From contig MEDY01000025.1 of the NCBI GenBank assembly GCA_001724265.1, positions 62,001-126,000 on the forward strand: a stretch of 64,000 nt of DNA, in the 5' to 3' direction. This DNA comes from Rhizaria sp. SCN 62-66 (taxonomy: Eukaryota). Position 1 is the stretch's first letter. Each line of letters starts with the position of its first letter. Shown in pieces: positions 10,681 through 52,728 of the stretch. The notes under the pieces were generated by a model. The model saw only the letters and a list, made by a program, of their open reading frames with translations, was not told the DNA's origin and searched no databases. Position numbers and translations under genes: made by a program.

Positions 10681-10711
<31 letters not shown>

Positions 10712-11769: not shown

Positions 11770-11801
<32 letters not shown>

Positions 11802-19600: not shown

Positions 19601-22600
19601 CGTGAGAGAGAGGCCGTATTGAAGCTGCAATTGGTGTTGTTGCGACTCGGCGAGCAGTATGTCGTGCCACTTAGACGCTTCCGCGACGAACTGGTCTAAG
19701 TACATCGCCTGCAGATTAGGGGGCAGCTCGCCACCCTTACACAGCGACGACGACAAGTTAGAGCCAGAACCAGAACCAGAGCCAGAGCCGGAGGTACTTA
19801 CACTCGCGGCACCCTTGGACGCAGAGCCGCTAGCCCCAACACCCTTAGGCTTCCCAGAGGCAGTCACCGCGCCGCTGGTTCCAGCACTGCTACCGCTAGT
19901 ATTGCTCGTGGCAGTGCCAGTGTTCGCAGCGGCTGCAGTCGTCGTCAGGAACAGAGAGCGCGACAGCAGAAGCTCTTGCGCCTCAGCAGCGCTCAGCTTC
20001 CGGGTGGAGCCCCCGCCCGCCGCGCCCGCCGCGCCCGCGCCCCCCGCCGCCGACGACGCCACAACGCCGTTGAGGCTGTTGTTCACACCCCCCGGGATCG
20101 CCCCGAGCAGCGCGGCCGAAGCGGCGGTGTTGCGGCCGATGATCTCGGCAAAGAAGCGGACACTGAAGGCCTGCAGTTGCGGCGACAGGCCTCGAATCCC
20201 GCACTCGTTGGCCAACATCACGCGGAGGTGCGTCTCCAGACTGCCCCAGCCCTTGCCGTCCACCACGCTGAGCGCGGACGCGTAGCAGCGCACGGCGTGG
20301 GCGAGGCGGCCTAACTTGCGGTACAGATGCGCCGCCATGGTGAGGTGGAAGGCGTACTTGCGCACCAACGGAGTCGGCAGCAACAGGTACGTGTACGACA
20401 GGTGTTCGAGCAGCAGCGCGCCGCGAATGCTGTTGGCCTCGCCGTCCGAGGCGCGGACCAGCACGGCGGCGACATCACGGATGCGCGAGCCGACGAGCAG
20501 CATGCGGCTGGGGTGCTGCGGCCACTGCTGCTGCTGCAGCTGCTGCAGCTGACCCAGCAGCGAGTAGCTCGACTGGATGCCCGTGATTGTATTCGTAGCG
20601 CTGGGACTCAGCATGCTGCTGGCGCCTTTCGCGGTCAGGCTCTTGTTGTAGATGGTGTTCCCGGTTGTCAGTGAGGTGTTGTAGTTGTACCCGCCGTTGC
20701 CGCCGAGGGTGCTCATGCTCATGTGCACCGGGTTCTGGGGCAGCACCGAGGGGAACCGATAGGCGTCCGCGAGCCATAGCAGCGCGCGAGTGGCCCGCCG
20801 CGAGTCGCCCAGCTTCGTGTACGCCGTCACGGCCGCCTCGATAGCGCTGGTTGCCTCCCGCATGGCCTTGCCGTACGCCTCGGTCTCCGCGGCGACGGCG
20901 ACAACGCCGCAGCCGTTGCTGCCAATGCCGCCGCTGCCGCCGCCGCCGGGGACTGTCAGCGTATTGCTCTTACTGCTGCTGCTGCTCGAGCCGGCGCCGT
21001 TGGGGGCCAGCAGTACAGGCGGCGGCGCAAAGAGCGGCACGGTGTTGTTCGTAGCGGGCGTCACGGTGGCCGCGAGCATGATGGCCAGACCCAGGTATTC
21101 GCTGGCGGCGGCGGCGTGGACCGGGGCCGACGCGTTGCGGAAGTCGGTCGTGGCGGCGCGAAGGTGCTCCACTGCGAGGTCAGTCCTCCCCAGCGAGAAA
21201 GCCAGGGAGGCGAGTGCGATGGTGGTGGCCTCAGGCGCGGTGCGGGGGAAGGCGAACGTGGACACGCCGGTCAACGACAGACGGGTCGTGTCCGCCGCGG
21301 TGGCCGCAGCCGCACTGCTGCTACTGGAGCCGCCGCTGCCGGAGCCAGAGCCGCCGGCGTCGGCCGCGGAGGTGGTGGCGGTGGTTTTGCGACCGCCGAA
21401 GATGGACTTGAGCGTGTTGCGAATGCCTTTGCGCTCCGAAGTCACCTTCTCCTTGAGGAAGTTAAGCCGCTTGTGGGCCGCGGGCATAATAACGCGCTGC
21501 ACGAGCTGCTTGGCGAAGGTGCTGAGGTCGTAGAGGTCATCTTCAGACAGCAAAGCACCGAAACCGAGGTACTGAGAGCTGATGTTGCTGTTGTTCGGGC
21601 CGTTGTAGTCATCTGCAGCTGTTGCGGCAGGGTCGCTTCGAGTACTTGAAGCGGAGTTTTGCGCGGTCGACGGGGAGGAGCGGTACGCGGTGGTCGGCGG
21701 CAGAAACACCGTCGACGTGACCGACGGCCGGCCGGTCAGAGACAGCCTCCCAGCCGCCGCCGCCGCCGCTCCGGAGGAGGCGGTGGACGCGACGGAGTTG
21801 CTGCGGCTGCCGAACTGACTCCCCGCGGCGGCGTCGGCCTCGGCGGCAAGGATTCTCGCGCGGGCGCAGTCCGAGGCGGCGGCGACCTCGGCCGCGGTCT
21901 GGGGCGGAACCTGCGCCGTGAGGGCCTGCGCCCAGAGCAGGCGCGCCACCGCGGGGCACCGCGCCCCCGGAGCAGAGGCCGGGTAGAGGGAACGCGAGCG
22001 GGCCAGCAGGCGCGCCCAGCGGCGGTGCGCCTCGGCGCGGAGGGCCTGGGACGGCGGGGAGATTTGGCCCGGGAGCAGCGTTTCAGAGAGCATGCCTGGG
22101 GTTTCAAGAGAAACAAAGGAGAGGAGAGAGGACATACATCGGGGTGAGATTAGTGCAGAGTGACAGAAACGTGTCATATTCTAGTAGAAATTAGCATGTT
22201 AGTTTTACATATCAAGTGTTAATGCAAAATGACGATGATTATGAAGCGTATATCTCGTCCCAACTTCTCTTCAAGTCGCCAGACTGAAGGCCGAACAAGT
22301 CGAGAGGAGAGTAGAGTCGAGTATAGTAGAGTGTCCAGACAAGACAGCTGGATTAGACCGGTGGGACACGTACCTGGGGTGAGCGTGGCGGCGGTGAGCC
22401 TGCGCCAGTAGACGAGCGCGGCGGAGGGCTGCGCGGGTGCCAGTGAGAGCGCGAGCGCGGCAGCCGACGTCTGGTCGAACATCAGGATGTCCGACGGGGA
22501 CGGAGCCGGGGCCTGCGATGACTGTGAGCGAGAGTTGGCACTCGCAGATACGGTCGCAGTCGAGCTCGAGCTGCTGTTGGCGGCGGTGTTAGAGCTAGAC

Positions 22601-27181: not shown

Positions 27182-30100
27182 ATGTCCTGCTCTCAGCCGC
27201 AGCAGCAGCAGCCGACAAGCAGCAGCAGCCCTCCTGTTAACTCAACTGCAGCAACTGCCGCAGCGTCCGCTTTAGGGGCGATGACAACGAGGAGCTACGC
27301 CCATGACGACAGCGACGACGAGTTCGATGATGACGATCGCGATAACGATCACCCGCCGACCGACGACGACGAGTGCGGCGACGACTACGACGACGATGAC
27401 AACGATGAGAGCGAGACAGACGGCGATTGCGACAGAGCCTACCGCACCGCTAGAGCTGCGGCTGGCTACAACGCGAGAACGAGCAACGGCCCAGTTTCGC
27501 CGCGCACAAGGTCCAACAACTCAACCAACTCGAGCAGCTACCAGCACCACACACACCAGCAACAACAACAGCAACAGCAGTAGTCTCAGGCCCAGTCTCA
27601 GTCCCAAGCTGTCTCTACTTACACTGCGTCTACTCACGACGGTGTTTCCGTCCCAACCGACCTCTCAGGCACTTACATCGGAGGCACTGATAACGCCGCG
27701 GGCGCCTACACGCACACTCAAGCTTCAAGCGGCTTGTTGCCGTATCAACAGCAACCGCTGCAGCGCAGCTCGTCCCCTGCTCACAGTCACTTGAGTGCGC
27801 ACAGTCAGCTGAGCTCGGTCTCACAGCAGTCTCTGGACGAGAGCGGCACGCATCCGCATCCGCAGTCTCAGTCTCAGTCTCAGTTTCAGTCTCAGTCACG
27901 GGTGCAGCCGCATGTGTTGCCACAGGCTGGTCACGGGTACAGTAACAACAACATCAACAACAACAACAACGGCGGCGGCAGCTCTCAGTTCGCTCTCAAC
28001 ACCCAGCATCAGCCTCAGCTTCAGCAGCAGCCACAACAGCATCCGTCCCAGCCGCAGCCGCCGGGTCTAAGTACCCCCGCTCTAAGTACCTCTGCCAAGG
28101 CGCCCGCCCGCGCCCCGCGCCGCGTGACCGAGGACCTGCTCGAGCGGCGCCTGTTGCAGCACGACTTTGTGTACGTCAAGTGCGACGGAGACTGCCCCGC
28201 CGACGGCATTGCCCCCTCGGCTGCGAGCGCACACAGTACCGCGAGCACCAACTATACCCCCAACTATACCAGCAACACTGGTTACGCGCGCGTAGGCAGT
28301 GCCGGCGCTAATCATGCGACGACCGCGAGCGCGGCGCGTGTGAGCGGCACGGGCGGCGCTGCTGGATCTATTTCTGACATTGTGGCGACTCAGGCGACCG
28401 TGAGTGCGTTTCACGCTGATGTGGACCGCAAAAACAACAGTTTTTCTCCGAGTTTGAGTGAGGCGTCCACTGTCACCGTGTCGGTGCCGCCGCCCGCAGG
28501 CGTTCACAACAATATCAACAACAACAACAATCTCAACAATACCAGCAATACGAACACGTGCTACAACAACTTTGCTGCCAGCGCCGGTGCCAGTGTCGGG
28601 GCGAGTGCGAGTACCGTTTACTCTTGGAATCCTCCGGTAGGTTCCAATCACGCCCACAGTCGAAGTGCCGTCTCGCGGGCTGTAAGTACCCCCGGGGTAA
28701 GTACCCCCGGGGTAAGTACCGCTGCTAGCCCCCGCAGCAACGTCACGAGTCTCAGCACCGCCCACTCGGCCGCGCTAAGTACCCCCTTAGACAGTGCAAG
28801 TACGCAGACGCAGCTGTCCCCGAGTACGCCCCCCCACGTGTTCCCCTCGTCGCCCCAGCCACAACAGCCGCGGTCACCAGAGAACGACTTCGCCAACTAC
28901 AGTACTAACAACAACCATAACGGCCATAACAACAACCACAACGGGGATAACGCTGATGCGGGCAACGCTGTCACCGCCACCAGCAGCAGCGCCAACAGCA
29001 CCACGACTGCGAGTAGTTTGGGCAGTGCCGCTGCGAGTCCGAGGGCTGTTAAGGCTTCGAGCGCGTTGTCGATGCACACGCCTGAGCGTGTTTCGACTGT
29101 GCCGATGCTGCCAACGCCAGAGACCGGAACTGAGGCTGAGACTGACGCGGAGTCCCTGACGGGGGGGCTGAGGACTGTTGGAGTGAACGACATTGCTCTC
29201 GCCGTCTCCCCGCAGCAGCAACAGCAGCAGCAACAACAACAACAACAACAACAACAACTACAACTGCAGCAGCAGCAGCAGGTATCGAGAAGCAGTGCGT
29301 GTGGCTGCATTGCCACTCAGCCCGACGGTGTAAGTACCCCGGCCGCGAGTCCAAGTACCCACTCAGACTCCACGGTTGCGAACCGCAGCAACGTTCTCGC
29401 TAACAGCGCTAGCAGCCCGAGTGCCGGTGTCACTACCATGAGCACTGGTGTTGGCTATGTGAATGAGCTCGGTAACATCAGTGAGGCAGACTCACCTCCG
29501 TTTGCCTCCATGTCACAGCTGCCGCAGTCTCAGTCTCAGTCTCGGCCGGCTACAGCATCGTCTTCGAGCTCTAACCCGACTGCGACTGGGATTGGGGCTG
29601 GGGCTGGGATCGGTGCTACAGCGATGTCCGCCGCCGCCGCCGCCGTGGCCGCCGCCGCTGGCTCTTCCGCCACAACCACGGGCACTCCGGGCGCGGGCTC
29701 CAGCAAGCTGCGCTTCGCGTGCCGCCCCTCGGCAGTGCTCGTGGTCAAGAAGCACAATAACAGTCACGTGTCCTCGGACATGGCGCTGCTATGCGACTTC
29801 CTGATCCACACCTGCGGCCTGACGGTGTTTGCCGAGCCCCTCGTGGTGGCCAATGAGCCCGCGCTGCGGCACCTGACCCCCTTAGACCCCGCGCACCCGG
29901 GTAAGGGGGTCGACTTCGCCATCACGCTCGGCGGTGACGGCACGGTGCTGCATTACAACTCGCTGTTCAAGGCTGGACGGCCGGTCCCGCCAGTTGTGTC
30001 GTTCGCGCTCGGCTCGCTCGGCTTTCTGACGCCGTTTCCGTTCTCCAAGCACAGGGAGGTGATCGCAACCATCTTGCGCTCGTATTGTAGCAACAATAAC

Positions 30101-31087
30101 ACTGTGAGCGGGAGTGTCACACCCTTGAGCAGCAGTCCGCCCGCAGCCGCAGCCGCTGGGAGCAGCTTGCAACAACAGTCGCAGTTTGAGGATAGTGGCA
30201 ATATCAGCGGCAATATTAGCAGCAGCAGCAGTAGCAGCAGCAGCAGTAGCAATGGCAACGGTGTCAGCGCCACTACGAGTCTGAATACCAATAGCATTAG
30301 TGCTCATGGTAACGCCGGTGTGACCGTGAACACCAGCAACAGCAACTCTCTCGGTACTGTGATCTCCAGTCCAAGCGAGAACGCTTCCGTGTACGTCAGT
30401 GCCCGTGTCAGGCTGCTGTGCCGCGTCGTCAAAGCGCCTCGCAACAATAACAACAATAATAACATCAATATTAGTCACACGAACGCGAGGACCGGCGCGA
30501 GCTCCTCTGTCGTTGATGACACCAACAGTAGTAGCACTCTTAGCAGTACCAGTACTCTCGTGGGCGGCTTAACTTCTCCCGCGACTGTGGTGAGCACCCA
30601 CCAGCCGCTGAACGAAGTGGTGATCCAGCGCAACCTCGTCCCCTCGATGGCGCTGCTGGAGCTGTTCGTCGACGGGCACTTCGTGACGACTGTGCGCGCG
30701 GACGGACTGATCGTGGCTACGCCGACCGGCTCGACGGGCTATAGTATGAGTGCGGGGGGGCCTATGCTCGCCCCGTCGACGCCCTCGATCGTGATTACGC
30801 CGCTTTGCCCGCACAACCTGTCGTTCCGTCCCGTCGTCGTGTGCGACGCGACGCTCATCCGCGTGCGAGTGCCGCCGACGCTGCCGGCCGACTCGCCGCC
30901 GCTGACTGCGTCCTTCGACGGCCGCAGCGCCGTGGAGCTGTACCCCGGTGACAGCGTGCAGATCTCGGTGTCGCATTTGCACGTTCCCAGCATCGTCTTC
31001 ACCGAGTTCAACTGCGAGTGGTTTAAGAGCATCAAGCATAAGCTGCACTGGAACAAGTCCTTTTTGGACCGGCCACCGAGGAAATAA
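27182..31087 (+). CDS. NADK: ATP-NAD kinase with long low-complexity N-terminal extension (~1300 aa if TAG 27581-27583 is read as sense)
   Basis: NAD kinase motifs are VDFAITLGGDGTVL, SFALGSLGFLTPF, PLNEVVI, ADGLIVATPTGSTGYSMSAGGPM, ITPLCPHNLSFRP, SFDGR and WFKSIKHKLHWN. ORFs 27152..27583 and 27734..31087 share one frame separated only by a TAG. Stop is TAA. The start at 27182 is inferred. Confidence 0.9.
28682..28720 (+). repeat. 15-bp tandem repeat GTAAGTACCCCCGGG x2.6 inside NADK (encodes VSTPG repeats)
   Basis: Read directly from the sequence. Confidence 0.9.
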
Positions 31088-32030
31088 GTAAGTACAATGT
31101 CCTATGTACGGATCCATATCAACACATTAAGTCCTACCGCACTACTACGTAGTATCCATATAAGAAATACAAAACGATTTTTGTCCCTTAGACACGTGTG
31201 TCTCAGTCACGAGGGATGACCAAACAGGACATTGTTAGGAGGCATATAAGCAATTCCTATTGCTGCTGCTATGTTTCTATGTCTTGTACTCACATGGTGT
31301 AAGTGCCTTTCGTAATTGCAATACTTTAGTCTGATTGTCTCCGGATCACGAATCGCTTGCACAAAACAGCACAACAAGTAGCCCACTTTATTACTACATA
31401 TTCACCACAATAACCGGCATGATCACACTGTGGCCGTCATAAGAGCTCTACAAAGGCTGTATATTAAGTATATTTAAGATTTGTAGATATAATCAACATC
31501 CATGCTCGATATAGTGGCAATGACACACCACACCACATTAAAGATCTCTTAGTAGCCCAAAGGCTCAGGGTAGAATTGCCGGGGGCGAGAGAAAGCGAGA
31601 CTAACGGAGCGTGCGATATTTATTGTTTTAGGTATTTATTAAGTCGATTGATAACAAATCGACTCATATTCATGCCATTTTTTATTGGTGACTTTGATCG
31701 TTCCCTATATTTCCACGTTGAAACATATATATGCGTCATGCGTAAAGCTTTGTACGGAGATGTTTTTATTATTACATGTAGATTGTATGTGGACATTGTA
31801 TGTTGATACGTAAGAATGACATTATTCGTACGTATTTATATTAGATCGGTATTGGGTAGAAATGAATTTAAAACAACGACAAAAAACAACAACGAAAACA
31901 CTGAAGAGTATCACACGTGCGTGACCTGGCTGGTGATCAAGTCATCACAGGTGAGAGTATGGCTGCTGGCGTCTGGTTGTTATGTCTTGTCAGTTTTGCT
32001 GTCGCTGAAGTCCGTATTGCTGTTTTTGCT

Positions 32031-35000
32031 TCATTTTGGTTCTCGGTGTGAAGTGTCAGTAATATGAACAATGCGTACTGACATCATTCCGCCTTTGTAG
32101 ACTTCTAAGGCCTCTTGATAATCGTCATCGTCGGCAAATGGCACCGGGGTGATATCCATAATATACAACAGCTTGTTTTCCGTCGTTTGAGAAAAAACGT
32201 AAACGCAGCAATCGACGGAATCAAAAGATTTGTGGCTGTCACTGTTCCCACGTTTGCGGATTTTGGTGCTGTTGACATCACGCTTGCGCTTGCTTTCGGT
32301 TTGCTTCCGCAATGCAGATTCGACTGTCTTTGTCAGCTTCTTAACCGTCCGATGCATTGCGCCCATGCGAAGAGCACACTTGCCAGATCGCGCAAGTCGA
32401 ATCAGTCCGACAAGCGGATTGCCGGCGACTCCCGTTGGAAATTGAAGCAATGCTGACTGAAAGTGAGGTTGCGTCGAGAATTTGACGTCAAAGCGCCACG
32501 CAAAGTTTGCATACGAACAAGTGCTGTGAGCAGAAGAATCTGATTTCTGTGTGGCAAGCGTGATTTCATCACGGATTTCGACAGCTTTCCTGGCGATCTT
32601 TTTGATGAATGCCTTCGAATCTAGCTCGCCATCAATAACTGTCACGCGTCGGTTCAATGAGCAATCCTGATTGCGGTAGATATGCGTCATGTCTACGTCG
32701 CCCTAACTGTATAGGGTGCCACTTTCGGTGACCAGATCATACGGTTTATGATGCTTGCGAAAAAGGAGTGGGAGCTCATCTTGACCCTCCACATCCTTGC
32801 CACCACGAACCAGAGAGTACATAGAGCGCAGCATGCCAGTAGTTCCGTGGTATGCAACTTGGTCAAGAAGCCAGTACGGGGCCTCTGGACTTGCCCACTC
32901 TAGATCGCAGTTGAGATGGCGTTGATAAGCTGGGCTGTCATCCATAGAGTTAGTGGCACGAACACACACATCATGTTTGCAGTTGCTTAGCCACACTTGT
33001 GGCGACCAAGCGATAGGGGGCTCGCTACTTGAGGGCTCGATTGTCCAGATGGCATGTGACAGCTTAAACGCACTTGTACTGACAGTTTTATTGTCGTACA
33101 AGACATGAATTATATTATTAACACTGCTAACAGAGCTTAGCTTGCTCAATGCTAGCGCGTCAATCGCGGTGATTGCATCCTTTAGGCGAGTACGAACGGT
33201 CGCTTCACTCTGATCCCCACATGCAGCTTCCAAGGCAAACTTGAAATCACCTTTTGCATGTTCGACAGCATCGTCCACTTTTGGCGAATAGAACGTCTTA
33301 GTGAGTTCAAAGGCTTCCTCGATCTCCTCTGTTTTCCAGGCATATGACCATAAAGGAACGAAATTTGCAACAGCACTGTCGGTTGCTGACTTGCAGATGT
33401 TACTGTAACGCTCCAAATAAGGAGGCGTTGATATCACAGTTGTTGCTGCAGCCGTCGCGCCATGTACAGGCAGGCCGTTGTCGCAGCTAGAGTCAAAGAG
33501 ATACAGCGTGTTTTCGTGAGCCAACTTGAGCTTGACTTCGTCGCGATCAAGCGCTTCAACACTATCAGGCAAGAAGGAATCGGAGTCATCGGTCGACGCA
33601 GCGTAGTGATGGATATCATTATTCGGAAAGTGGCAGATCACGTTCATGTTGAGCTTGAAGCGCGCAATGTACCACAACAAGTTCAGCATCGCAGACTTGC
33701 CCGTGCCAGGCGGGCCGCGCACAATGAACGTGGTTCCAGGAACAGAGCGGTCAACCTTGCGCGTGCTCAAGTGAGTCACGAGACCTTTGTAAAGACCGTT
33801 ATGCGACTTACGCAGCAGCAACCTCTCGATAAAGGCGTCGTTGGGACCTGTGCCGCTAAAGGGAAAGAAAGCACCCTTAGGTGCGTCAAGCGTGTGGAAA
33901 AAAGTTGAGGTCGAGTCAAACGTCATTAGAGCATGAGCCTTGCTAAAAATCTCAGCGTAAGCTCGAGCAACACTTAGCTGAGTAGCGGCCGCTAGCCGCT
34001 GCTTGTATGCTTTTAGCCTGGCCTTGGCCTGTGCCTGTGCAGCCTTAGCTGCGACAAGTTCGCTGTGTGCTTTTAGCCGGTTTGAGGCGTCGGTCGCCTT
34101 ATTGAGCGTCGCATGTGCATTGTTGACAGAACTCGTTTTTTCCACGAAGCTGTGCTTTACTGCGCTGAGAAGGCGAGCTAGCCTGGCGATACTTTTTGCG
34201 GTCAAGGGTGCCCGTGCGCCTAGCAGTGCCAGTACACATGAGTACACGTGGAAAAAATCGAGAAGTACAAATGCAAAAGTATGAATATGTGAGATATTGA
34301 TAATGTTCGATAAACATGCCAATGATATAGATGGCAACAATATGTTGATTCATTATCTCCTTCAAAGTTAATCGTGAACAATTAATTGGCGACGTACGCC
34401 TAAGATCCGGCAACATTGCTTCCAGCTATTTTTCAGCATCTTCCCGTGCACAGTTTGCTTGCCAAATCTAGAGTACAGCGTTAGAAAGAGGGCCATTTGT
34501 TTCATCCGAGACATTGCTGCGCTAGAAAGAATAGCTCATCATAATGTACCCTTGAAGGGTAGATTCAAGATACTCAAGCTATTCGGAAAGGGATTCCATA
34601 CTAGGGTTTTCCAGCAACTTACCTTCTTCAATCTACTCTATCTCTCGTCGAACCCTGTTGCACTCTTGTTTGCATTTTTTTATCTCAGCAGCTAGCCACT
34701 ATTCTTCAAACTCCTATTGTGCGTGCTCCATCAGGGTATCGCGCCTCGGCCCCGCAGCTTCATGCTCGTCGATTTTCGCTTTGTAGATTCGTTCCTTTGC
34801 GTGCTCGAGGTCACGCTCAGCTGCGAGCCCCTTCTACAAAGCAGATCTCAGAGTGTTAGGCTCGAATTCAGGGTACTCCCCTTCGTCGATGGTTGAAAGC
34901 ATGGCTTCATCTGCAATTGTAGAAGGACGATATTAAGAAATACATTTAATATATTATTATATTGCGTCGAAGCGGGGATTTTAGGGCACAATGAGTGGAT

Positions 35001-35882
35001 AGTACTAGTATTACAAAAGAGAAAAACATATATCGAATTTGCGTCTACGTATTCGGAAACAAGTGATTCAGTTATGTTGCAAGAGTGACGTACCTTCAGT
35101 ACTGCTAAGAGAGCGGTGAGTGCTTGCGGTAGCAGAGACGTTGAGTCGAAGGGGCAAAGACGAAAATGTACGAGTGAAAAAAGACGCTGCACCTCCAGTT
35201 AGGGCCATCGATGATGCGTGACTGTTCTTGTTCTAGTTGGTATTAATAGGGATGTTGAGGCGCGGAGTGCGGGATGCTGCCCTTGCACTTGTGACAGCAA
35301 TGTCCTCGGCGTTGTCGTTGTCGCAGAATGGTGCCTTCTACAGATGCCAGAATATCGAAGGGGAGAGAGCCGAGTGAAATACAGTGTGTTTGTGAGACCA
35401 AGAATAGCAAGAGAGCAAGAGGACAAGCAAAGTACGCTGATATGAAAATTGGGCATACAAGTCGGAGTACAGCTTCAAACAAGACAACGCATTTTGTAGC
35501 AAGAGGCGACGGTAAATCACATACGCAGTTACTTGCACGGTTGACAGAGGCGTCTAACTTATGACTGATGTTGGTTTGCACTGCATCTGTGTCCTTGCGG
35601 ACACGCGCCAGGGCTACTGCTGCAATGGCGAAAGACGGTGTAGAAGAGCAAAGAAGGTAACCTATTGGGAACAAAGCATATGTGATCTTCCGAGTCGTGA
35701 GACTTTCGTTTGAAAACAGTGCCATTCGCCTCCTGGGGAGAGCTCGAAGTACGAGTTAAGGAGGCCAAGAGTGGCAAGCCCCAGTGTTCCCAATGAATTT
35801 ATCGGGCGAAGATGATAATTGAGGATGAACACGTACCCACTTTGTTTGTCAGTAAAAATCCCTTGGCAGTTCTACCGAGCAT
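32031..35882 (-). CDS. Crinkler/RHS-type (CR) protein: N-terminal coiled coil, P-loop NTPase and possible degenerate REase-like C-terminus; proposed exons 35882..35837, 35619..35525, 35337..35094, 34910..34398, 34219..32031 (1028 aa, 10 in-frame TAG)
   Basis: Walker A FIVRGPPGTGKSAMLNLLW, Walker-B-like TLYLFDS, TVISTPP..ERY..ICK and VPLWS...EEI follow the CR-NTPase pattern. Four GT-AG introns (35620..35836, 35338..35524, 34911..35093, 34220..34397) have matching phases and give a 3087-nt spliced frame with no internal TAA or TGA. The first two exons and the 3' end are less certain; another GTACGC donor is possible near 32078. Confidence 0.65.
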
Positions 35883-36868
35883 CTTAGCTAGAGTTCTTTC
35901 CGCAAACAAGGGAGTGCAAGAGAACCTGGATTAAGTGATCAACTTCAGCGCTTCGGACTTCAGGCCCGGTCTGGGTGGCTGTCAGATTGAGGTCAGAAAT
36001 ACGTCAATAGAAAAATTGAGTCGAATAAAATAAACACAAATCGTAGAGTTGTAATTTTTGTGAGCATTGGACGTCGGGTCCCATGGAAAAATACAGAAAG
36101 ACAAACGCAAAGAAATGACACTTGCTGCATGCGATGACACCAGAGCATCGTTAGATATCTGCGAATGCCTCGTTCTAGCTAGAGACAAGGGTTCATAAAA
36201 TGTCTCTAGTACCATTAAGGACAAACCAAGGTGGCATATGCATGGCAATTTCCAGAGCTTTATCAGAGAACATGTATGGGTCTTACAAGGGCCTCAATAT
36301 TCTCACGCGTTGGCGGAGTGCACTGCTGGGTTTTTCGGAACTTGGTCATAATGGATCTGGCACATCCAATCGCGTGGACATCGTCACTCTTGCGATAGGT
36401 AGTGATTATTTTAGTATCAACGATGCATGATTGATTTTCAATCTAAGCTTACATGGATATATACACATGTAATATGAAGTTGTCTGTTATGCGCAGCTGA
36501 CGTATGAGAACCTGTTACGTATACTAAGTAAGCTTACTGTACTAGTATTGATAAAAAAATTGCGTATTCTCGTCACGAGTACATCTCCAAAGATCTTGAG
36601 TTCTGCTACATTTGCGTGGACTTGCTTTCTGTCCTTAGGTATACAGTGTACATAGAGTGTAATATGTCAATGGTTCATGAATAGCTATCTGTCCAAGGAG
36701 TCAGTAAGAAATCTTTGGACTTGCCCAAGCAAGATTACGTTTTGGGGGACTCGAATTACTAGTGTATCGTGAATACGTATCTTAATGCATGTACATCATT
36801 GAACATTTTTAACTTGTCTGAATATTGTTGTTTGCGCACCCTGTTGCGCAATCTCTTAGCACTTGCGC

Positions 36869-38310
36869 TTATTCCTTCAGCTGTTGCTGTTGTTTTTGTT
36901 GTTGTTGTTGCAGCTGCTGCTGCTGCTGCTGCATCAGCGCACGCCACAGCCTGCGTTCCTTGCGCGCCTCGCGCCTGCGGTTAGCAGCTCGTCTCAGCCC
37001 GTCTTCGTGGAACTCCCGGCTCGAGGGCCAGTTCTTGATCTCGCTCATCATCATCTCACCTACGACCCGGCCCTTGCCGCCTCCCCTACCGCCACCGCCG
37101 CCGCCGTCGCGGGTGACAGCGTCGCACGATGACGTAGCGTCGCCATGGTGGTGCCTGTGCTTGTGGTGGTGACGAAGCTTGCTACTGCCGCCCATGCCGC
37201 CGCTGGCGCCGCCGCCGCTGCTGCCGCTGCTGCCGCTGATGGTGGCGGAGATCGTAGCCCGAAGCGCGCGCACCGACTGCGACTGCACGATGGCCTGCGC
37301 CAGAGCCTGGGGCAGTCCCAGTCCTAGTCCCAGTGCCGGCGGCGGCGGCAGCGGCGTCAGCGGCGGCGGAGGCGTTGCGCTTGACGCCACTAAGGGCGAT
37401 AACGACACCGCAGCTGACGACAATGCAGAGCTGGCAGTGTTGCTGTCGTCGGCAGTCGAGTCAGCGTCAGTGGGCGTGGGGGCCGTTGCAGCGGCAAAGC
37501 CGTCAAACACAGTGTCAGTGCCGTCGCCATACGTGTCCCGTCGCTCATTGTCACTGCCTTCTTCACTGTCATCGCCGGTCTCGCCGATTTTAGTCGCATT
37601 GTTCGGAGTTGCGCCAAGTGCACCCGTGTTGCTGTCGTCATCGCTGGAACCACCACTTGCACTGCTGCTCCGACCAGTGCCATCCGAATCAGAGAGAGAG
37701 GATGACACATCGCCTGTAGCAACAGCTGTTCCACCAGTCGCAACATTCTTTCGGCCGCGCTTGTTTGCCATGACACCAGAGGCGGATACAGACGAGGTCG
37801 CAGCCGCTGCCGCTGCAGTCGCGGCGGCGGCGGCGGCGGAGGTAGCAACAGCGGCCTTGGCTACTGCAGCCGCTGCCGCTGCTGCCGCTGCTGCCGCCGC
37901 GGCGGCCTCTGCGCGCCACCATGGGTCGCCGCCCCATTCCCACCCCCACCAGCCACCTCCGCCGCCGCCGCCGCCGCTGCTGCCGCCGCCGTCATTGTCG
38001 TCATCGTCGTCGATGTCGGGGCCGAGGCCGGGTACGCGTGGGGGCCACCTGCGCTGCTGCTGCTGCTGTGCGTTGCGGGTATTGACTGAGCCTGCACGGC
38101 CCTTGCCAGTCGCCCCCGCGGCGTTAGCATGGCCACTGCGAGTGTTCTTGCTCTTGCTGTTGTTGCGTTGGTTGTTGTTAGCGGGACCGAGACTGGCGTT
38201 GTTATTCGCGGCGCCACCGTAGCTGGAGCTGTAATACCCACGCTCGGCCGCTGCAAGGCATAGTAACGCGTACTCGCGGCCAAGGGCGAGACACATGCGG
38301 TAGTGCCTTC

Positions 38311-38342
<32 letters not shown>

Positions 38343-41300
38343 GCATCACAGTCGTTGCCATTGCTAGTCAAGTGACTCTGTTGCTGATCAGCAGGGCTAG
38401 TCGCAGCGGCAGCAGAGGGGTCAATGGCCCTTGCGGCGGCTACCATCACACGGACAGGCTCTATGGGCCACTCTGCACAAGCGGGGCTTACACTCGCCGC
38501 AGCCTTGCTGCCGTTGTTGCTGGCATCCGTCGCAGCGACTACGAGAGCAAGTGCTGCGCACCGACGCATTGCAGAAGTCGCCTGGGACAAAGACGACACC
38601 ACCACCGCAGTCGCCTCGGCGTCGGCCTCAGCCTTCGCCTTAGCGGCAGCGGCAGCGGCGGCACGTTTTGCCTCGGCGTCGGCCAGCGCGGCGGCCTTCG
38701 CTACCTCCGCCTCTGCCTCTGCCTCTGCCTCAGCGTCGCCGTTGCCGTTGCCGTAGGCGTCAGGGGAGCTACGACCAGGAGAGTTGCCGCCGCCGTCCAT
38801 TACCAGTGGTTTGTTGGCGCCAACAGCCGCCGCTCTGGGGGTAGGAGCCTGGCTTGGAGCCTGGCTGTGAACTCGGCTGTGGTAGTTCCCCGCTTTCGTC
38901 GCCGTTTTACTGGCGTTGCGCGCGCCGCCACTGCCCCTGCCGCTGCCGCCGCCGGCCAGCGCGTCGACGGCTGCAGCCACGGCTTCGTGGCCGCCTTGGC
39001 GTCCGCTCAACCCCGCGCCCACGGCCACCAGCAGCGCGTGCAGCGCGGAGGCGGCTTGAGTTAAATCGGCCAGGGAGTACACGGGGCGGGACAACAGCTC
39101 AATGAGGTCGGCATCCGGGTTATACAGCGCAGGGCTACTTCCATTGCACGAGCTACTTACATTCGCGGCGCTGGGACTCGCGGCGGTGTCACGACCAATT
39201 GTACTTGAGCTGTCGTTGTTACCAGCAGAAGAATCAGCCTCAACACACACGTTTGCCGCTTCAGCGACGCTAGCGCCCGTGACCATCGCGAGATTGGCCA
39301 CGAAATTTTCACTGGCGACGGGTCCCAGCCCTAGGGGGCGCGCCGCGCCCAGCGCCAGCGCCAGCGCCAAAGTGCGCGCCCTTTCAGCACCGTTCACACT
39401 GGCACTCGGCTCCCTCGTACTGTTCCTGCTCGTCGCGTTGTCGCTGCTGTTGCTGTTATTGTTATTGTTGTTGTCGTTGCTAGCATTGGCAAGGTCGTTG
39501 GCGTTCGCGGCGAGCGTCAACACATGTGACAGCGCCTCCGTCTGCAGCCGCGCCCACCACCTGGGTCCGCCCCCGCCGGCACTCGACGCGCCGACACCCG
39601 AGCCGCCGCCGCCACCGCCGGTGGAACTGCTGGTATTTGCACCTGAAGCACCACCGGCGACGGTAGCGCTAATGAACGGCCGCAGGAGCTGCTGTCGGAC
39701 CGAAAGCGTCCACCCGGGGCGCGCCGTGTTGCTGCTGCTGCCGCCTGTGGAGGAATATACGGACACAGATGCCGACGCAGAAGGCGACTGTGCCGGCGGC
39801 GGCGAGGGCGACAGTGTGCTCAGACTAAGACCAGGACGAGTGGCGTCTAAGTGGGTACTTACACGCAGCGCACTGCCGTCGCCGTCAGCCAGCTTGCTCC
39901 GCCCATCGGCTTCAGCGGCCGCCCGCTCAGCCGCTGCGACCGCGGCCGCCCTCGCCGCCGCTGCTGCCGCGGCCGCTGCCGCGGCCGCGGCCGCCGCGCG
40001 CGCGTAGGTGGCGGCGGCCCGGGCTCGCGCGAGGCGGCGGTGCCAGGTGATGGCGACCCGCGATCGCATACGGCCCGCGGCGGCCGAAACGCGGGCCAAG
40101 AGGCGGACGACGGGAGTGCTGTCGCGGCGGGCGAGCAGGGCGAGGACGTGCGCCCACCGTAGTAGCGGCGGACGCTGCGCAATCGTAGACTGCGCAGTTG
40201 ACGTATGTGACTGTGCGATGGAGCCCTGCTGAAGAGAAGACTGCTGCGCCGAGAGACTGTGCGCAGCTGCTGCCGAATGAGAGTGACCGTGGTCGTGGGG
40301 AGGAAAAGCGGGGTTCGAGGGGACTGGGACTGTCGCAACGGTGGCAGCGGAAGCGGTGAAGACTGGGTGAGAGTCGTACTGGTACACGACGCCTGCCCGG
40401 CGCCGGTGGGCTGTCAGACGCGCCGCGCGGGCGGCGATGGAGCCCGGCGCGGCGGCGTCGGTGCTGTAGAGCGCCACCAGAGAGCTAGTTGCACTGGCTG
40501 CGCTGGCAGAAGTCGTGAGGGCAGGAGACTGGGTGGCGACGACGGCTGATGAGAGAAATGCCGCGGGTTGAGTGTCAAGGGTGACGGCTGATGAGAGCGA
40601 GGTCGATGGAGGAGGGAGCAAGCCTGGCAGTGACGACGATGCTGAGAGGGGTGAGGCATGTGCTACAAACTGAGAAGAGGCTGACAGAGACGCGGAGTCA
40701 GTGGGGGATGCAAGTGGCGCGTGCACAACAATAGGAGTGGGACCAACGTTGCGTGACTCGCCCTCTGTCTCAGCCGCGGAGGCTGCGGCGGCTGCCTGCG
40801 CCAAGACGGCGCGCGTGTGGCGTTTGTGGCAGTAGAGGCAGTCCAAGGCGTGGTTGCGATGGTAGCCGAACAGCTCATCGCCATTGTCGCCACCGATGGC
40901 GCTACTGAGACCGGCACTGCCGCTGACGCCATTGACAGCCGCGTTGGTGTGATTAAAAGCGTTAGAGATTACGGTGATGTCAGCGACACCGAAGGCGGAT
41001 AAGGGGCCATCGGGGTGACTGAGAGCTGGGTGACTGTGGGCAGCCATCGCGGCGCTGTGGCAGCGGCAGGTGCAGTGCGCAGACTGACTCACTTGTTGTT
41101 GTTGTGCGAGGAGGGAGACTGTAGTGAGATCAACTGCAGAGTAAGGGAAACCACCAGTGCCACTTTGTCCACAAACAGGGCTCACTGAAACGGAGTTACG
41201 GCCAACGCCGTTCGTGTTGGTCGCGGAGCAGGTGATCTTGCTCGTCGTGTCAACCATAGCAATGCTCTTGCAATTGCTTGACTCCGGGAAGTTTGACTCT

Positions 41301-44300
41301 GAGGAGTTTGACTCGCAGTCGTCAGAGTCCGAGGCGAATGGCCCCGCCGGCAGCGACTGCGCCACAGGAAACAAACCAACCACGACTCTCTCGCCCACAC
41401 TTACACTGCCGCCCGCCCCAGAAGTACTTAGACTCTGGGCAGTATTCGCGTTACTGACACCCGACAGACAACAACAACCACAGCCACTTACACTGTGCAT
41501 TGCTCCCACAGCAGCGCTGGTGCTGCTGCTGCTGTACGCAGAGTTGATACTGCTACTGCTGCTGACACTGGCGCAGTGCGCCGCAGCGGCCGGCAGCGTC
41601 CGCGCCCGCCTGCGCAGAGCCGCTAGCCGGGCAGGGGCGACCGTGAGCAGGCGGCAGTGCGCCGCGGTGGGGCGAGCGGACCGGACGGGCGGCGGCGGTC
41701 GCAGCGCCGGCAGCGAGGGCTGCTCACACAGCGTCGCCTCGCAGCTAGAGAACGCAGCGGTTGTCGTGTTGTTAGACTGGGGTCGCGGCGGCGCCAGCGC
41801 CATCCGCCAAGCGATAAGGAACGGTGCGTGCGCAGTGAGGGACAGCACATCAGTGAGCAAAGTTAAACCGCATTGCTCAGCGGAGACTGTGGGAACGGCA
41901 GCACGAGTGATTGGCGTCATAGCACCGGCGGCGTTGCTCATGGTCACCGGACGAGGGGCCGCAGTCGTCGTGCTTGCAATCGCGCTCAAAAGGGTTATAC
42001 TAGTGGCCGTAGAGGTGTCAGAGCGCTGACTGTTGTTGCCTATCTTCGTGCAATTTTCGTTATCCTTGCTGTTGTTACGGCTACGATAGCGTTCGTCGCG
42101 GTTGCGAGATGTTGGTGTGTCGGCGTCACTGGCGGGGACGAGCACGCGCGCAGCCTTATACTCCCGTTCAGCCTCCACATCCGTATCGTTTTTGTCGTCA
42201 TCACTTCTAGTCTCAGCATCGACACCGTGTTGAGGATTAGCAGTAGACTTGGCACGACTGCTGCTGCCGCCGCCGCGGTTGCTACTACGGCGCGCAACAC
42301 GGATCCACTTGTTTTGCTCGTCACACCACTCGAACTTGCTGCCACCAGGGTTGTCTTTGGTGCTGTTGGGGCTCATCATCGACGCGTTAACATGCTTAGG
42401 AGCGCCGTCAGCAATACTAATACCGTCGTTATCGGTGTCATAGTGACTGCTGCGACGCGACGCCGCGCTATCTGTGTTGGTGTCTACGTATGCGTTGCTG
42501 TTTCCTTTCTTCTTGCTGAGACTGTTACTGCTGTTGCGGACAATGCCCGACACAGAGTCGTCGCCGATCGCAATAGCGTCGTCATCGTTGCCGTCATTGT
42601 CGTCATCGTTGAGCACTAACGAGTCGTCACGGCCAATGCCGCCACCATTCTCATCGTCATCGTCATCGTCATCATCGTCATTGCCACCGCCGTCATCGCC
42701 GTCGTCGTCGTCGTCGTCATCCTCGTCACAACTCAGCTCACTGTCCTCTGCAGCGAGATCAGCCGCGCTGGCACCTATGACAGCGACGCCACCGCCGCCA
42801 TTACCCACGGTCACGCCGCTGCCCTTGCCACCAGGCTGGCCGCCCTCGCCCTCCCCGGCGGCGCCCGCGGCGAGATGACCGTGAGCGGCACGAGTACCGC
42901 GTCCGTCGCCGCTGCCGCACAGCGCTCGCGCGAGCGCGATGCTGCCGCTGCCGCCCTCGCCAACGGCGGCCGCCGCCGCGACCCCGGCCGTGACCGCCGC
43001 GGCGGCCGCGGCAGTGGCGGCGGAGGCGGCGAGAGCGGAAGCGGCGGCGGCGGACGCGCGTTGAGCTCGTAGCCGCGTTGCAGTGGCGGCTGCGGCGGCT
43101 GCGGCTGCGGCGGCAGCGGCGGCGGCGACAACGCTGCCACGGACTGGGGTGCCAGCAGCCTTCGCGACCTTGGCAGCAGCAGCAGCAGCAGCAGTGGAGG
43201 CAGCGGGGACAGTGTTCTTGGCGTTAATACTGTTGTTGTTCTCTATGAGTGGGACAGGCGCAGGCAAACGCGCGTGTTGCTGGGTCGGGGTGCTTACACT
43301 CGCTGTGTTAGCACTTACAATCGGCGACGAGAGCGCTTGCGACAAAGACTGAGACTGAGACTGAGACCTTGATTGTGTCTGTGAGGGCGAGTGTGACTGT
43401 GCGAGCAGCGACTGAGGAGAGCGATTGACTATGGTGGTTACACCGGCCTTAGGGGTACTTACATCGCCAGCAGCCGTGCCATGCTCGGCATTGTCCTTAT
43501 CACTGTTTTCGCCGTCCTTGTTAGAACTCAACATCTGTCGTTTCGTATTGCCACCCAGTACAGCGCCAGTATCACCGCCATCAGCAGTTAGAAGCGACTG
43601 CGGTTCAGGCCCTTGCCCAGAGCTAGAGCTGAAGGTAGGTCCGTGAACACTCCCGTCGCCAGGGTGTGTGAGAGTTGCAGGTGCGAACGACGATGACTTA
43701 GTGAGCTCATGGAGCGGCGAGTACACTTCGTCATTTACCGTACTATCGTCAGCACCACTGCCCTCAAAACGCTTGACATCTAAGTACCTCGCCGAGTGTA
43801 AGGGTGTCGGGTCCCGCGACACAACGACGTGTGCGTGCGAAATCGGCGACGTCAGCTCAAGTGCAAGCTCTGATCTAAGTGCCAGCGAATCGCCGCCCTC
43901 AGCAGCTGGAAGTACCCCGCCACCCGGTGTGAGTAACTCCCCACTAGGCGTCTCACTGCCACTCTGCATATCTCTTGCAGTGCTGACACTCGAGCTGCTG
44001 TTGGCGCTGATACCTGCAGACTGCGACTGCGGGGAAGTTAAGCCGCCTGTACTCACTTGACGTGACCTCGCAATCTCGTTCCGTAACTGCATTTGCTGCA
44101 TCTGCTGCATCTGCTGCTGCTGTTGTTGCTGCTGCTTTACAGTACTTGCGGTCAGATTAACACCGGACCCAGAGGGTTTTGTACCAGTCAACGTCTTACT
44201 CTGTGTCGTGACATTTGCGCCCGCGTTTGTATCCCCTGAAGCAGCAGCAGGAGACTTGCTCGGCAACGCTTTCGTTGCCTTGCCACCCGGGGTGGTTACG

Positions 44301-47300
44301 CCTTTGCTCTGCGTCTTAGACTGCGCCTGTGCCTTTGACTGAACTTGCGATTGTGCCTGTGCTTGAGACTGCGGCGACTGTGCTTGTGGCTGTTTCACCG
44401 CCAACGCCCGGGCCCACACGGCGCCCAGCGCATGCGCACCGGTCAGGGCCCACAGTCGCACCGCACCGCTGTCCCAACCGCTGGGACAGTCAGGAGCACC
44501 ACGTTCACAGTCAATCGACTGATCGGGGTCGCCAACAGCAGTCGACTGCTCACGGTCACCATTGGGTGATGGCTGCACACGGTCACCGTTACTAGTCACA
44601 GCGATCGAGTTGTCGTCGTCGTCGTTGTTGTTGGTGTTGTTGTTGTTGCTCTTGGAGTTTGCCACCGCTGTCCAGGCTTGGTGCCCCCTCAGCAGTGACA
44701 ATGCAGTCACACGGACTGGCTTACTGTTCGTAGTACGGGTACTCGAGCTGACTGGGGGCGCAGTCGCAGGTTTCGCCACAGACTCTGTATCGGTGCTTGT
44801 GGCGGGGACTGCTGCCGCTGCTGCAGTTGTTGTTTTCTGACTGACCGGAGGCACCATCATCGCCCACAGAGACTGCGCTGCAATCATGAGTCCGCGGGCA
44901 GCAACCGGGTTCCCTCCCGTTTGACCTCCGTCGTTGCTCGTGATAGAATCACTCGCACTGCCATTGAGACTGGCGTGGCCAATACTGGGAGAGCTGATGT
45001 GTCGGGGCACTGCGCTCGCCAAGGCGGCTTTCATTAGCTCCACCGCGATAGTTAAGCCACCCGGGTGCATTTGCAGAGGCTGCAGCCGGCGCGCAGTCAC
45101 ACAACACATCACAGTCTTTGTCTTTGCAGTTGCTGCTGCTGCTGCTGTTGCTGTTGTTGCCGTCGTGTCGTTGATCGTGGTAAATGCATAGCAGTACACG
45201 AGTCCCCAGCCTGCGGCGTCGCCGGTGTTCACGGCCACACCCTGTTCACGGTCACCCCCGCCGACGACAGTCCTGGACGTCGCGCTCAGAGTCGCCACGC
45301 TTTCGTCGCCACCAGAAGCAGCGTCCGCATCGCCACTAGGCGCTGTCACGGCGCGGGGGAGGCGGAAGGGGCAGCAGCAAGCGTGCTCACAGCCACTCGC
45401 TGCACTGACACTGCCGCTCGAGTGGTAGCCCGAGCTCTCTGACTGTGACTGGGAGTGGTGGGACGACTGTGATGGAGTGTGTAGCCACAGACCACTCATC
45501 CCTTCCGCGCTCACAGTTACATCGTAATGATCGTCGTCGTCATAGTCGTTGCCGTCAAGACGACTGCGATCGCTCGAGAGACTGTGATCACCCACGGTGG
45601 AGTGACCGTGAGCGACGGAGTGACCGTGAGCATCTGAGTGACTGTGGGCATCTGAGTGACCGTGGGCATCTGAGTGAGCGTGAACAGCAGCAGTCAGCGG
45701 CAACGGCATCGCAGGGCAGTGCACAACTCCTCCGGCGGCGTCGCCCCCGCCCACGGCAGCCGTCGCGATCGCCACAGCCATCGCCGACGCCGCGGCGGCG
45801 GCGGCAGCCGAGGCCGCAGCAGTGGCGGCGGCGGCGGCGGCGACGGCGGCGGCGGTGGCGGCGGCAGCAGCGGTTGCGCCCGCTCCTAGCGTTGATGTTG
45901 AAGTGGCACCCTTGGACTGGGTGGTCTTGCTGTTGGTCTTAGACTGGTAGTTGGTGGGGTGAGAGTCTGTCAGCTGAGTCGAATAACCATCGTTAGGACC
46001 ACCGTTGTGAGAGTTCGCATGATTGCAGATACAAGCAGCAGCAGCTGCGGCAGAGCTATTGTCACTGGGAGTGGCGTTAACACCGCTGCCGCTGCTGCTG
46101 CTGCTGCTGTTGTTGTTAACATTGCTACTCCCACTGCGACTGGGGAGTCCGCATCCGTAGCAAACAGCTGCATTGAAAGCCATGTGGTTGCTGTTCTTGT
46201 TGTTAAACAGTCTCGTCGGGTTCAGCGCCGCCGCCTGTGCACCGCCCATAACATCAGTGTAAGTACCCTGCTGCGGCGAGGTGTAAGTGTCTCTCGAGTC
46301 GCCGCCGCCCTCAGCCGCGTCTGGGTGCAGCATCGGCGGTTGCGACGCCACGGTGGCCAGTCTAAGTACCTTCTTGGCGTGTAAGGGTGCCTTGGCGCGG
46401 TGCCGCATGCCGGTCAGGCCGGTGAGTAATCCTTCTACTCCCGCTGCCGCTGACGCTGCAGCAGTCGTCAGGTCCCTCGATGCTGATGCAGAGGCAGAGG
46501 AAAATGCTGTGGCCGAGGCAGAGACAGGAGAATCGCTACGAGTAGTCGTCGAGTTTGCGATGCCATTATTATTGCTGCTGTTGTTGTTGTTTTTCTTGTT
46601 CGTATTGAATAACAAAGGACACACATCCGCCCATGAGATACCCCACTCACGGTCACCGTCATTGCCACCGCCACCGTTGCAGTCAACCCAGTCAACATCA
46701 TTGTCACTGCCACTGCCACTGCCAACACCGTTGCTGGTGTTGAAGCTAGTCGCCGGTGCTTTCGCCTTTATCGCGGCTAAACGGAGCTTCTTCGTGACGG
46801 CAAGCAGCAACTGCACCAGCAGCGGATCTGGCAAGGCCGCCCCCGCACAAAGCACTACCCTCGCTACCACGGCGTCTTCGGCGACCTCAGCAGAACCCAG
46901 GCCGCCGCCGCCTGCTGCGGAAGGTGAGCCGCCACGCCGGTAGAGCTCTGGGGGCCCGCAGCAGAGACAGCCGTCAAGCGACAGCAATCTCCGTGACACT
47001 GCTGGCTTCGGCAGCAGCAGCAGTCCAGCAGAAGGAGCAGAAGTAAGGGTCGCCTCAGGTGTAGGTGTCGCACTCGGTGTAAGCGCCGCCGGTGTAAGTG
47101 CCGCCGCGAGTATCGGCGGCACCCGTGGGTGGCACGGGCATAGCAACCCCCGGGACGCGCCCAATAGCAGGAGCCATGCGGCGGCCGCGGGGGACACCGG
47201 CATCGCGAGCGGCCACTCTTGCTGCGTCTGCGTCTGTGACCGTGACAGCGCCTGTAACTGTGTTTGTGGTGGCGGCGGCGGTGGGGGTGGCGGAGCGAGC

Positions 47301-47749: not shown

Positions 47750-48204
47750 CGCAGTCACAAAGCGCGGTCAGCGGCTCTTAAGCAACGGGTGCGGTGTGGA
47801 GGGAAGAAAAGCACACGCTTGGCTGTTGAGATGAAGTGGCGCGAGCGTGTGTCACGCTGACAGAGAGAGCTGCGTGAGGCGAGAGACGTAGGCCGGGAGA
47901 GGGGAGGCGTCTGGGAGGTGAGTTGTTGCCGGTAAGAAATATAATTTTGAAAATGTTATTAACACGCACAGAAAGAACTCGTGGTACTGAAACGCACTCT
48001 GCTTACGGAGAGTGGTGTTCGATATCTTATGTTTTCGAGAGGACGAAGTGTCCGGACGAGTTGGTGGCCACAGTCGGGAACTTTGAATGAGGTGTGATTT
48101 GAATAGCAAATATATAACCACATAGACCGTCAAGCACGTATGGGACACAATCTTGCGATTTAGTTTGCTTACAAATTATTGTTTTTCTTTTTAATTCACT
48201 TGAC

Positions 48205-52697: not shown

Positions 52698-52728
<31 letters not shown>

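Follow-up and report, generated by a model that had tools for sequence, protein, structure and literature searches.

Probable translation of UAG in a multi-copy NTPase gene family of a GC-rich, uncultured eukaryote

A 513-nt stretch on the minus strand of contig MEDY01000025.1 (assembly GCA_001724265.1, deposited as Rhizaria sp. SCN 62-66) raises the question of how a frame that contains eight TAG codons and neither TAA nor TGA is to be read. The stretch lies at positions 34398-34910 of the 64,000-nt region analyzed here (contig positions 62,001-126,000; hereafter, the window), immediately upstream of sequence encoding a predicted P-loop nucleoside triphosphatase (NTPase). An original prediction, made from the sequence alone, had proposed it to be an exon in which TAG is translated as Gln. 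It is argued here that UAG is probably translated in this GC-rich, intron-poor eukaryote, most likely as Gln with Glu being possible, that UAA and UGA terminate, and that the flagged stretch is a coding exon.

Read on the minus strand from 34911 downward, the frame comprised 171 codons, with TAG at codons 26, 66, 71, 93, 111, 130, 148 and 162 and no TAA or TGA, such that all eight CTA positions assigned earlier to the plus strand were found where listed. Together with the sequences on either side, the stretch was placed in the following gene model.

35094..35208, minus strand: putative exon 1 (38 codons plus 1 nt), with a candidate ATG at 35208-35206
34911..35093, minus strand: putative intron 1 (183 nt, GC 0.34), donor GTACGT (host consensus GTACG), acceptor TTGCAG
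34398..34910, minus strand: exon 2 (513 nt, phase-1 start), eight in-frame TAGs, placed by frame and splice signals
34836-34834, 34716-34714, 34701-34699, 34635-34633, 34581-34579, 34524-34522, 34470-34468 and 34428-34426, minus strand: the exon 2 TAGs, read from the sequence
34220..34397, minus strand: putative intron 2 (178 nt, GC 0.35), donor GTACGT, acceptor CTAG
32034..34219, minus strand: exon 3, in which the coiled coil ends and is followed by the P-loop NTPase domain, a middle region and a C-terminal domain
33693..33716, minus strand: Walker A motif GPPGTGKS, invariant in nine of nine aligned family members
32705-32703, minus strand: ninth in-frame TAG, in exon 3
32033-32031, minus strand: TGA terminator, end of the gene model

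The splice signals of this model, namely, the acceptor ttgcag/AT at 34911/34910, the donor C/GTACGT at 34398/34397 and the acceptor ctgctag/G at 34220/34219, are present in the sequence, and joining 35208-35094, 34910-34398 and 34219-32034 yields a single frame of 938 codons containing nine TAGs and no TAA or TGA. Intron 2 was included because it is needed for exon 2 to enter the frame of the NTPase exon. Both donors are of the host-type GTACGT and both splice phases fit, as would be required for exon 2 to be spliced as drawn; translation could, alternatively, start at an in-frame ATG within exon 2 (34901-34899). As had been observed for the open reading frame (ORF) track, a gene caller using the standard code returned no call for exon 2. 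The ORF that it did report in exon 3 (product P0002) ends at the ninth TAG, and a related product, P0004, likewise ends at a TAG.

When stops were counted by frame (coding frame first), TAG was found 9, 9 and 9 times in the window gene and TAA plus TGA 0, 30 and 59 times. In exon 2, the corresponding numbers were 8, 2 and 2 for TAG, 0, 1 and 3 for TAA, and 0, 4 and 12 for TGA. The reported survival of in-frame CAA and CGA codons was borne out, with four CAA and three CGA codons being counted in exon 2 and 13 and nine, respectively, in the window gene as a whole.

Such a pattern is, by itself, not unique to exon 2. Among the 134 window frames of at least 150 codons that are free of TAA and TGA, five others contain six or seven TAGs.

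14301-16589, 19606-20070, 35071-35883, 38086-39102 and 41911-42387: other TAA/TGA-free frames with six or seven TAGs, mostly off-frames of GC-rich genes

As such, the weight given to exon 2 comes from gene context and from paralogs. Taken alone, these five frames speak against a coding exon, and they suit an alternative in which exon 2 is a noncoding 5′ leader of a gene that begins at an ATG shortly before exon 3 (as in P0002) and the open frame arose by chance, with TAG perhaps being sense elsewhere. Pointing the same way, homologs of exon 2 were not found by BLASTP, by a word-indexed search or by HMMER: BLASTP against the N-terminal parts of the paralogs gave only E values of 4.1 and 5.9, and the word-indexed search gave no match among 73 candidates. 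The sole HMMER match among 1.84 billion representatives, P0128 (E 4.9e-5), was rejected as spurious, being a repeat-bearing secreted protein that matched residues 121-162 three times. The original prediction had called for the exon 2 TAGs to be aligned with paralogs or orthologs, and for this exon no relative was detectable. Moreover, the frame of exon 1 stays free of TAA and TGA for another 225 codons upstream of the ATG (35209-35883, minus strand), with six TAGs and a translation that is not protein-like; this upstream frame could reflect chance, a constrained leader or more coding sequence. Finally, the single RNA-library contig at the border of exon 2 and intron 2 is unspliced, extending 11 nt into the intron.

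A noncoding leader was, nonetheless, considered unlikely. Exon 2 falls within a run of 277 codons free of TAA and TGA in DNA of 47% GC, a length reached in 3 of 2,000 mononucleotide shuffles of the island. Its GC content (0.47) falls to 0.34-0.35 exactly in both predicted introns, the same introns that show host-type donors and fitting phases, and its composition, in terms of GC content at the three codon positions (0.57/0.35/0.51) and purine at position 1 (0.60), resembles that of exon 3. In those family members with contigs reaching that far, roughly 230-330 residues of N-terminal coiled coil precede the point at which exon 3 starts, and the alignment with the closest homolog, P0003, begins exactly at ARAPL, immediately past the intron 2 acceptor. 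Judged from such sequence features, exon 2 is most likely a real coding exon, and it would encode the N-terminal, partly coiled-coil region of a member of a fast-evolving, multi-copy gene family.

The RNA-library contig mentioned above derives from a polyA-RNA library (X5) and covers 34387-34647, with five TAGs being unchanged; a second X5 contig covers 32101-32497, beyond the ninth TAG. The border contig could represent either unspliced RNA or DNA carry-over and, because such carry-over is possible, the X5 contigs count as weak evidence. Provided that the contig is RNA, the five unchanged TAGs disfavor U-to-C editing. X5 left exon 1, the 5′ half of exon 2 and the bulk of exon 3 uncovered, from which no inference was drawn. 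Hence, the proposal that exon 2 joins both of its neighbors held in terms of signals and phases, yet drew no support from the only RNA-library contig at a border. Relative to the window, the strain in runs X2 and X5 also shows a Ser to Ala change at 34509, within exon 2, and a synonymous TGT to TGC change at 32376, after the ninth TAG.

Searches for relatives of the window gene product revealed five proteins at E ≤ 0.001 among 8,000 scored candidates, one being the window's own product and the closest homolog, P0003, sharing 45% identity. A scan of a metagenome collection identified ten related loci (L001-L010; 32-46% identity), of which seven were counted as distinct, given that L002 equals L003, L006 is nearly L007, and L010 is a fragment on a probable chimera and was left out. 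Scans of genome contigs and of viral contigs yielded 67 and 56 stretches with the pattern, respectively, none of which was a relative. The family loci have a GC content of about 50%, like the window gene, with the flanks of L001-L003 reaching 66-77%, and their frames span 508-972 codons. An intron in L006 carries the donor GTACGC, and the loci are therefore attributed to a lineage that shares its splicing signal with the window. No Pfam family was matched above threshold by the exon 3 protein; below threshold, and far below the cut-offs, AAA_16 was seen in eight of nine members and nSTAND_NTPase5 in five of nine. Searches of PDB sequences, PADLOC and NCBIfam gave weak P-loop or coiled-coil matches only. 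The predicted architecture of the family, in which a coiled coil is followed by a P-loop NTPase and a C-terminal domain, matches no named family.

Two further observations relate to the copies of this family. In L010 (330-3165), the family fragment abuts 69% GC DNA containing bacterial-looking MFS transporter and YjgF-like ORFs, and this metagenome contig is probably chimeric. In the window, positions 36645-36735 are about 75% identical to the coding stretch 32814-32905 in direct orientation, with differences that are mostly GC-to-AT (tblastn E 0.11), and may be a remnant of another family copy.

The family provides the evidence that carries the argument. Summed over the seven distinct loci, TAG occurs 27, 31 and 21 times by frame, and TAA plus TGA 0, 163 and 330 times. 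In the family frame, TAGs are scattered through conserved sequence, with no TAA or TGA appearing before the true end, namely, TAA in L001, L002/L003 and L005 and TGA in the window gene. At the TAG where the standard-code product P0004 ends, some 300 conserved codons continue beyond in L002 and L001. Comparison of the window with L001 by tblastn gave a single frame from 33977 to 32310 that spans the ninth TAG, and the part after that TAG showed, when considered alone, weak similarity (BLASTP E 0.013, hhalign E 0.0018). In-frame UAG is, in other words, found inside conserved coding sequence with homology downstream. In addition, same-column TAGs are common to diverged paralogs, in one instance L007, L008 and L009 and, separately, L001 and L002.

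The expectation under neutral mutation was obtained by simulation, with each paralog being mutated using the observed spectrum and amount of substitutions, in five pairs and in both directions. Between 2.9 and 4.8 new TAGs were generated per direction, and observed TAG differences numbered 3-6 per pair when both sequences are taken together. At the same time, 3.5-6.2 TAA plus TGA were expected and none was observed, with the probability of obtaining no TAA or TGA being 0.0025-0.0275 per run. What selection removes from the frame, then, are TAA, TGA and frameshifts, and not TAG, which would accordingly be read.

The same comparisons bear on the possibility that the window gene and its relatives are defunct members of a repeat family whose host uses the standard code, with the TAGs being nonsense mutations that arose, for example, by C-to-T change on CAG, in the manner of repeat-induced point mutation (RIP). 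Several findings are those that decay would produce and, to that extent, count against translation. TAG differences equal the neutral expectation, and the ratio of nonsynonymous to synonymous substitution rates (dN/dS) between close paralogs is 0.67-1.09 over the whole gene and 0.70-1.24 in the coiled-coil part. TAG aligns with each of its one-step neighbors CAG, GAG, AAG, TGG, TTG and TCG; indeed, the residues seen at TAG columns are E, K, Q, W, L, S, H, P and R, as would be the case for neutral hits to TAG. The family is, moreover, multi-copy and lower in GC than the host, and the gene is missing from one of the two haplotype-like forms described below. Decay was, however, judged very improbable. 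One frame has remained open for 508-972 codons despite many length differences, the TAA and TGA codons expected between paralog pairs are absent, and none is found in that frame across the seven loci, as against the hundreds seen off-frame. The CAA and CGA codons of the window gene have likewise survived in frame. In the NTPase core, which lies downstream of the N-terminal TAGs, dN/dS is 0.42-0.62 in five of six close pairs (0.93 in the other) and 0.27 in the distant pair L001-L005. Stops of all kinds and frameshifts accumulating at a neutral rate, as in pseudogene or RIP-like decay, were thus not seen. The original prediction had named as contrary signs residues other than Gln at the TAG columns of paralogs along with dN/dS near 1; both were partly encountered, in the aligned residues and in the coiled-coil part, yet the integrity of the frame is under selection.

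Over its 502 codons, a coiled-coil ORF beside the family gene of L001 (3507-5012; GC 0.69) contains four TAGs in frame, two of which sit in a Q/E-rich repeat; TAA plus TGA occur 0 times in that frame, as against 6 and 19 times off-frame. Such usage raises the possibility that a relative uses TAG more freely.

As to the residue inserted, a crude BLOSUM tally over 17 TAG columns, all of them from the family, gave the highest score to E (7.8), ahead of Q (4.3), S (3.3) and K (1.0); L scored -28. In the closest relatives, CAG is found at three TAG columns, and P0005 has Q at a fourth. Because the coiled-coil region evolves almost neutrally, the residues at TAG columns say little of that which is inserted. 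On this basis, the residue would be polar and not Leu, with Gln and Glu not being separated, and UAG is most likely a sense codon for one or the other. The proposal that TAG stands for Gln accordingly stands in part, being favored by the position of TAGs in Gln runs of host genes, considered next, and not established by the column scores, in which E exceeds Q.

The host genes of the window, among which are a TRAPPC8-like ORF (2,853 codons), a TBC RabGAP, a NAD kinase, a phosphoserine-phosphatase-like gene and a UBA-domain gene, allow usage of UAG outside the family to be assessed. Two in-frame TAGs were identified in these genes, and six introns were read.

27581..27583, plus strand: host NAD kinase gene (ATG 27182 to TAA 31085-31087), in-frame TAG directly after eight CAG/CAA codons
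63918..63920, minus strand: host UBA-domain gene, in-frame TAG within AAA TAG CAG CAG (K-TAG-Q-Q)
5030, 25347, 26440, 34397 and 35093 of the window and approximately 1526 of L006: donor positions of the introns read, all GTACG

The NAD kinase ORF comprises 1,301 codons, and the next in-frame ATG past the TAG lies 496 codons on; that 496-codon stretch contains no in-frame stop, as compared with 15 and 15 off-frame, and no GTACG donor is found near the TAG. Introns are few and AT-rich, with all six of those read starting with GTACG (GTACGT, GTACGC or GTACGA). As the window gene has introns of this host type, it is taken to be a nuclear gene of this lineage. CTAG/G was observed in two acceptors, and so strict a donor consensus is unusual and might help in placing the lineage. 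In the cases of the giant host ORFs at 13637-22198, 5089-13023, 27182-31087, 36869-47767 and 48564-55814, homopolymer runs of N, Q, A, S, D and G have expanded the sequence several-fold.

TAA ends five of five giant host genes despite a GC content at third codon positions of 0.62-0.83, while the TAA of the sixth giant ORF is probably intronic. In these five host genes and in the family genes, it is UAA or UGA, and not UAG, that terminates, in what is a small sample. With these results, the proposal that TAG is translated rather than the product of pseudogene decay was well supported, on the strength of TAGs that arise at the neutral rate in paralogs from which TAA and TGA are absent, of homology past a TAG and of host TAGs in Gln runs.

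Against this reading, in addition to the limited number of terminators, stands the behavior of the core genes. Across the 13,859 codons of the six giant host ORFs, a single TAG lies in frame, as opposed to 62 and 134 off-frame, when about 128 would be expected were TAG a free synonym of CAG (based on TTG/CTG = 131/405 and 395 CAG codons). TAG is, accordingly, avoided in host genes nearly as strictly as TAA and TGA are, and wide use of UAG across ordinary genes was not seen. Likewise, no tRNA gene of any kind, and hence no tRNA(CUA), was found in the 64-kb window or in the ten loci; Rfam gave no match in the window or in L001-L003. Also to be weighed is that both host TAGs stand in Gln-codon contexts, and passages of a preprint (PMC13192750) describe Gln-codon contexts as promoting stop readthrough with Gln insertion in yeast, where the code is standard, such that the two host TAGs become weaker evidence of reassignment.

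It could, therefore, be that the standard code is kept, with TAG being read through only in Gln-rich host contexts and by family-specific or conditional suppression in a selfish or conflict-type family, in the manner of TAG-recoded phages. The roughly 100-fold avoidance of TAG in host ORFs next to its free use in the family, the Gln codons adjoining both host TAGs and the presence/absence polymorphism of the gene would all agree with such an arrangement, which was, even so, deemed distinctly unlikely. The residues flanking the nine TAGs of the window gene are L/K, Q/E, E/W, E/I, E/L, F/R, L/I, K/L and S/G, such that CAA precedes one of the nine and none has Gln codons on both sides; a Gln-flanked (QXQ-type) readthrough context applies to the two host TAGs and essentially not to the window gene. 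Eight readthroughs in one exon would, moreover, require near-complete efficiency, which amounts to reassignment. TAG is also not depleted in the family frame relative to the off-frames, no host gene examined ends in TAG, and no suppressor tRNA was found in or beside the elements.

Lastly, the segment might have been brought into this contig by an assembly chimera or by recent transfer from another organism in which TAG is sense. Such an origin is suggested by GC content, which is 0.47-0.51 in the family segment and 60-72% in the neighboring window genes, and by L010, where family sequence is evidently joined to bacterial genes. Contigs from the metagenome runs in which window DNA was detected bear on this origin, and one of them lacks the segment altogether.

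32029..36317: gene-bearing segment (4,289 nt), absent from an X2 contig that is about 92% alike and joins 32028 to 36318

That junction is seen in one X2 contig, with 93 nt on its shorter side, and the DNA lost runs from 2 nt past the TGA to 1.1 kb upstream of the ATG. Other contigs, from X2 and X3/X4, extend over the segment and across both junction regions, with a depth equal to that of the flanks, and the bins flanking the segment show doubled depth (approximately 6+6) in the same runs. The pattern resembles a pair of haplotype-like forms of equal depth, of which one lacks the gene. Given these contigs, the introns with the host's unusual GTACG donor and the recurrence of a low-GC gene within GC-rich flanks in L001-L003, a foreign or chimeric segment was regarded as scarcely credible.

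The runs in question, namely, a possible source run, X2 and X3/X4, are bioreactor or wastewater metagenomes; the tables from X3 and X4 were identical, such that the two may represent a single data set. Runs X6-X13, which share at most 0.11 of the sampled words, were not counted as habitat evidence, and X15 shares next to none. In a tree of NAD kinases built from 34 rows, comprising the window and 33 hand-chosen proteins (20 named and 13 unnamed) from among the 120 matches listed, the window grouped only with unnamed metagenome proteins, outside the opisthokonts and nearer to Plasmodiophora and green algae, as judged from a single gene and with weak support.

Translation of UAG across the organism would thus remain the preferred explanation, with decoding being performed by a tRNA(CUA) or by a near-cognate tRNA-Gln together with an altered eRF1. 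Each of the 29 Glu and nine Lys codons in exon 2 is a single step away from TAG or TAA. As GAG/GAA, AAG/AAA and CAA abound in the coiled-coil part, which is almost neutral, single-base changes to TAG would be frequent and tolerated, leading to eight TAGs in one exon. A more tentative thought, offered with some doubt, is that the lineage is at an early, or a costly, stage in capturing UAG, in which TAG has been taken out of termination, almost purged from long housekeeping genes and left neutral in a dispensable NTPase family; near-cognate tRNA-Gln and weakened eRF1 would perhaps decode TAG well enough for drift. If so, the lineage would be a natural case falling between the 'unassigned codon' and 'ambiguous intermediate' models, in a genome that is GC-rich and not AT-rich.

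Were UAG indeed sense, this would be a further independent origin of such a change, in a GC-rich, non-ciliate, uncultured eukaryote, and the skew in usage, near zero in core genes and free in one family, would offer a handle on stop-codon capture. As gene callers that assume the standard code cut such genes (P0002, P0004) or miss parts of them (exon 2), metagenome protein catalogues would be wrong for this lineage.

The UAG-only nuclear reassignments listed in passages of a 2024 review (PMC11687900) amount to a few ciliates together with a single genus of green algae, one fornicate and one rhizarian; in the literature searched, supplements aside, no GC-rich or wastewater protist with a UAG-only code was found. 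Parts of PMC5304391 and PMC11687900 describe UAG as Gln, with UAA and UGA as stops, in Iotanema spirale, Hartmannula sinica, Trochilia petrani and Protocruzia tuzeti. As in these UAG = Gln nuclear codes, TAG is here the only stop in frame, TAA is the preferred terminator and TAG is found in host genes where Gln codons are expected. By contrast, the genome of the window is GC-rich and neither ciliate- nor fornicate-like, and its housekeeping ORFs are almost without TAG, in a further point of discord with reassignment, whereas UAG is reported in 78-91% of the genes of UAG-reassigned ciliates (in the sections of PMC11687900 drawn upon). According to passages in the same two sources, UAG encodes Leu in the rhizarian exLh (Sainouroidea) and in uncultivated phyllopharyngean ciliates, systems that share with the present one a UAG-only change seen in sequence data of an uncultured protist. 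Here, however, Leu is the worst of the plausible residues (-28, as compared with +4 to +8 for Q and E), and host TAGs lie in Gln runs.

In Blastocrithidia, reassigned stops are, in the text of PMC12153298 relied on here, avoided in highly expressed genes, with their use being negatively correlated with GC. Similarly, use of the reassigned codon in the present lineage is strongly non-random among genes and lower at high GC, although Blastocrithidia is GC-poor and has reassigned all three stops, whereas the present change concerns TAG alone, in a GC-rich genome and with a far stronger skew. Readthrough in Gln contexts in yeast, as related in parts of PMC13192750, resembles the situation of both host TAGs, where insertion of Gln would be expected, yet such contexts are lacking at the TAGs of the flagged gene and at most of those in its paralogs. 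Reassignment of UAG alone with UAA kept as a stop is, then, a known kind of change; what sets the present lineage apart is the near absence of TAG from core genes.

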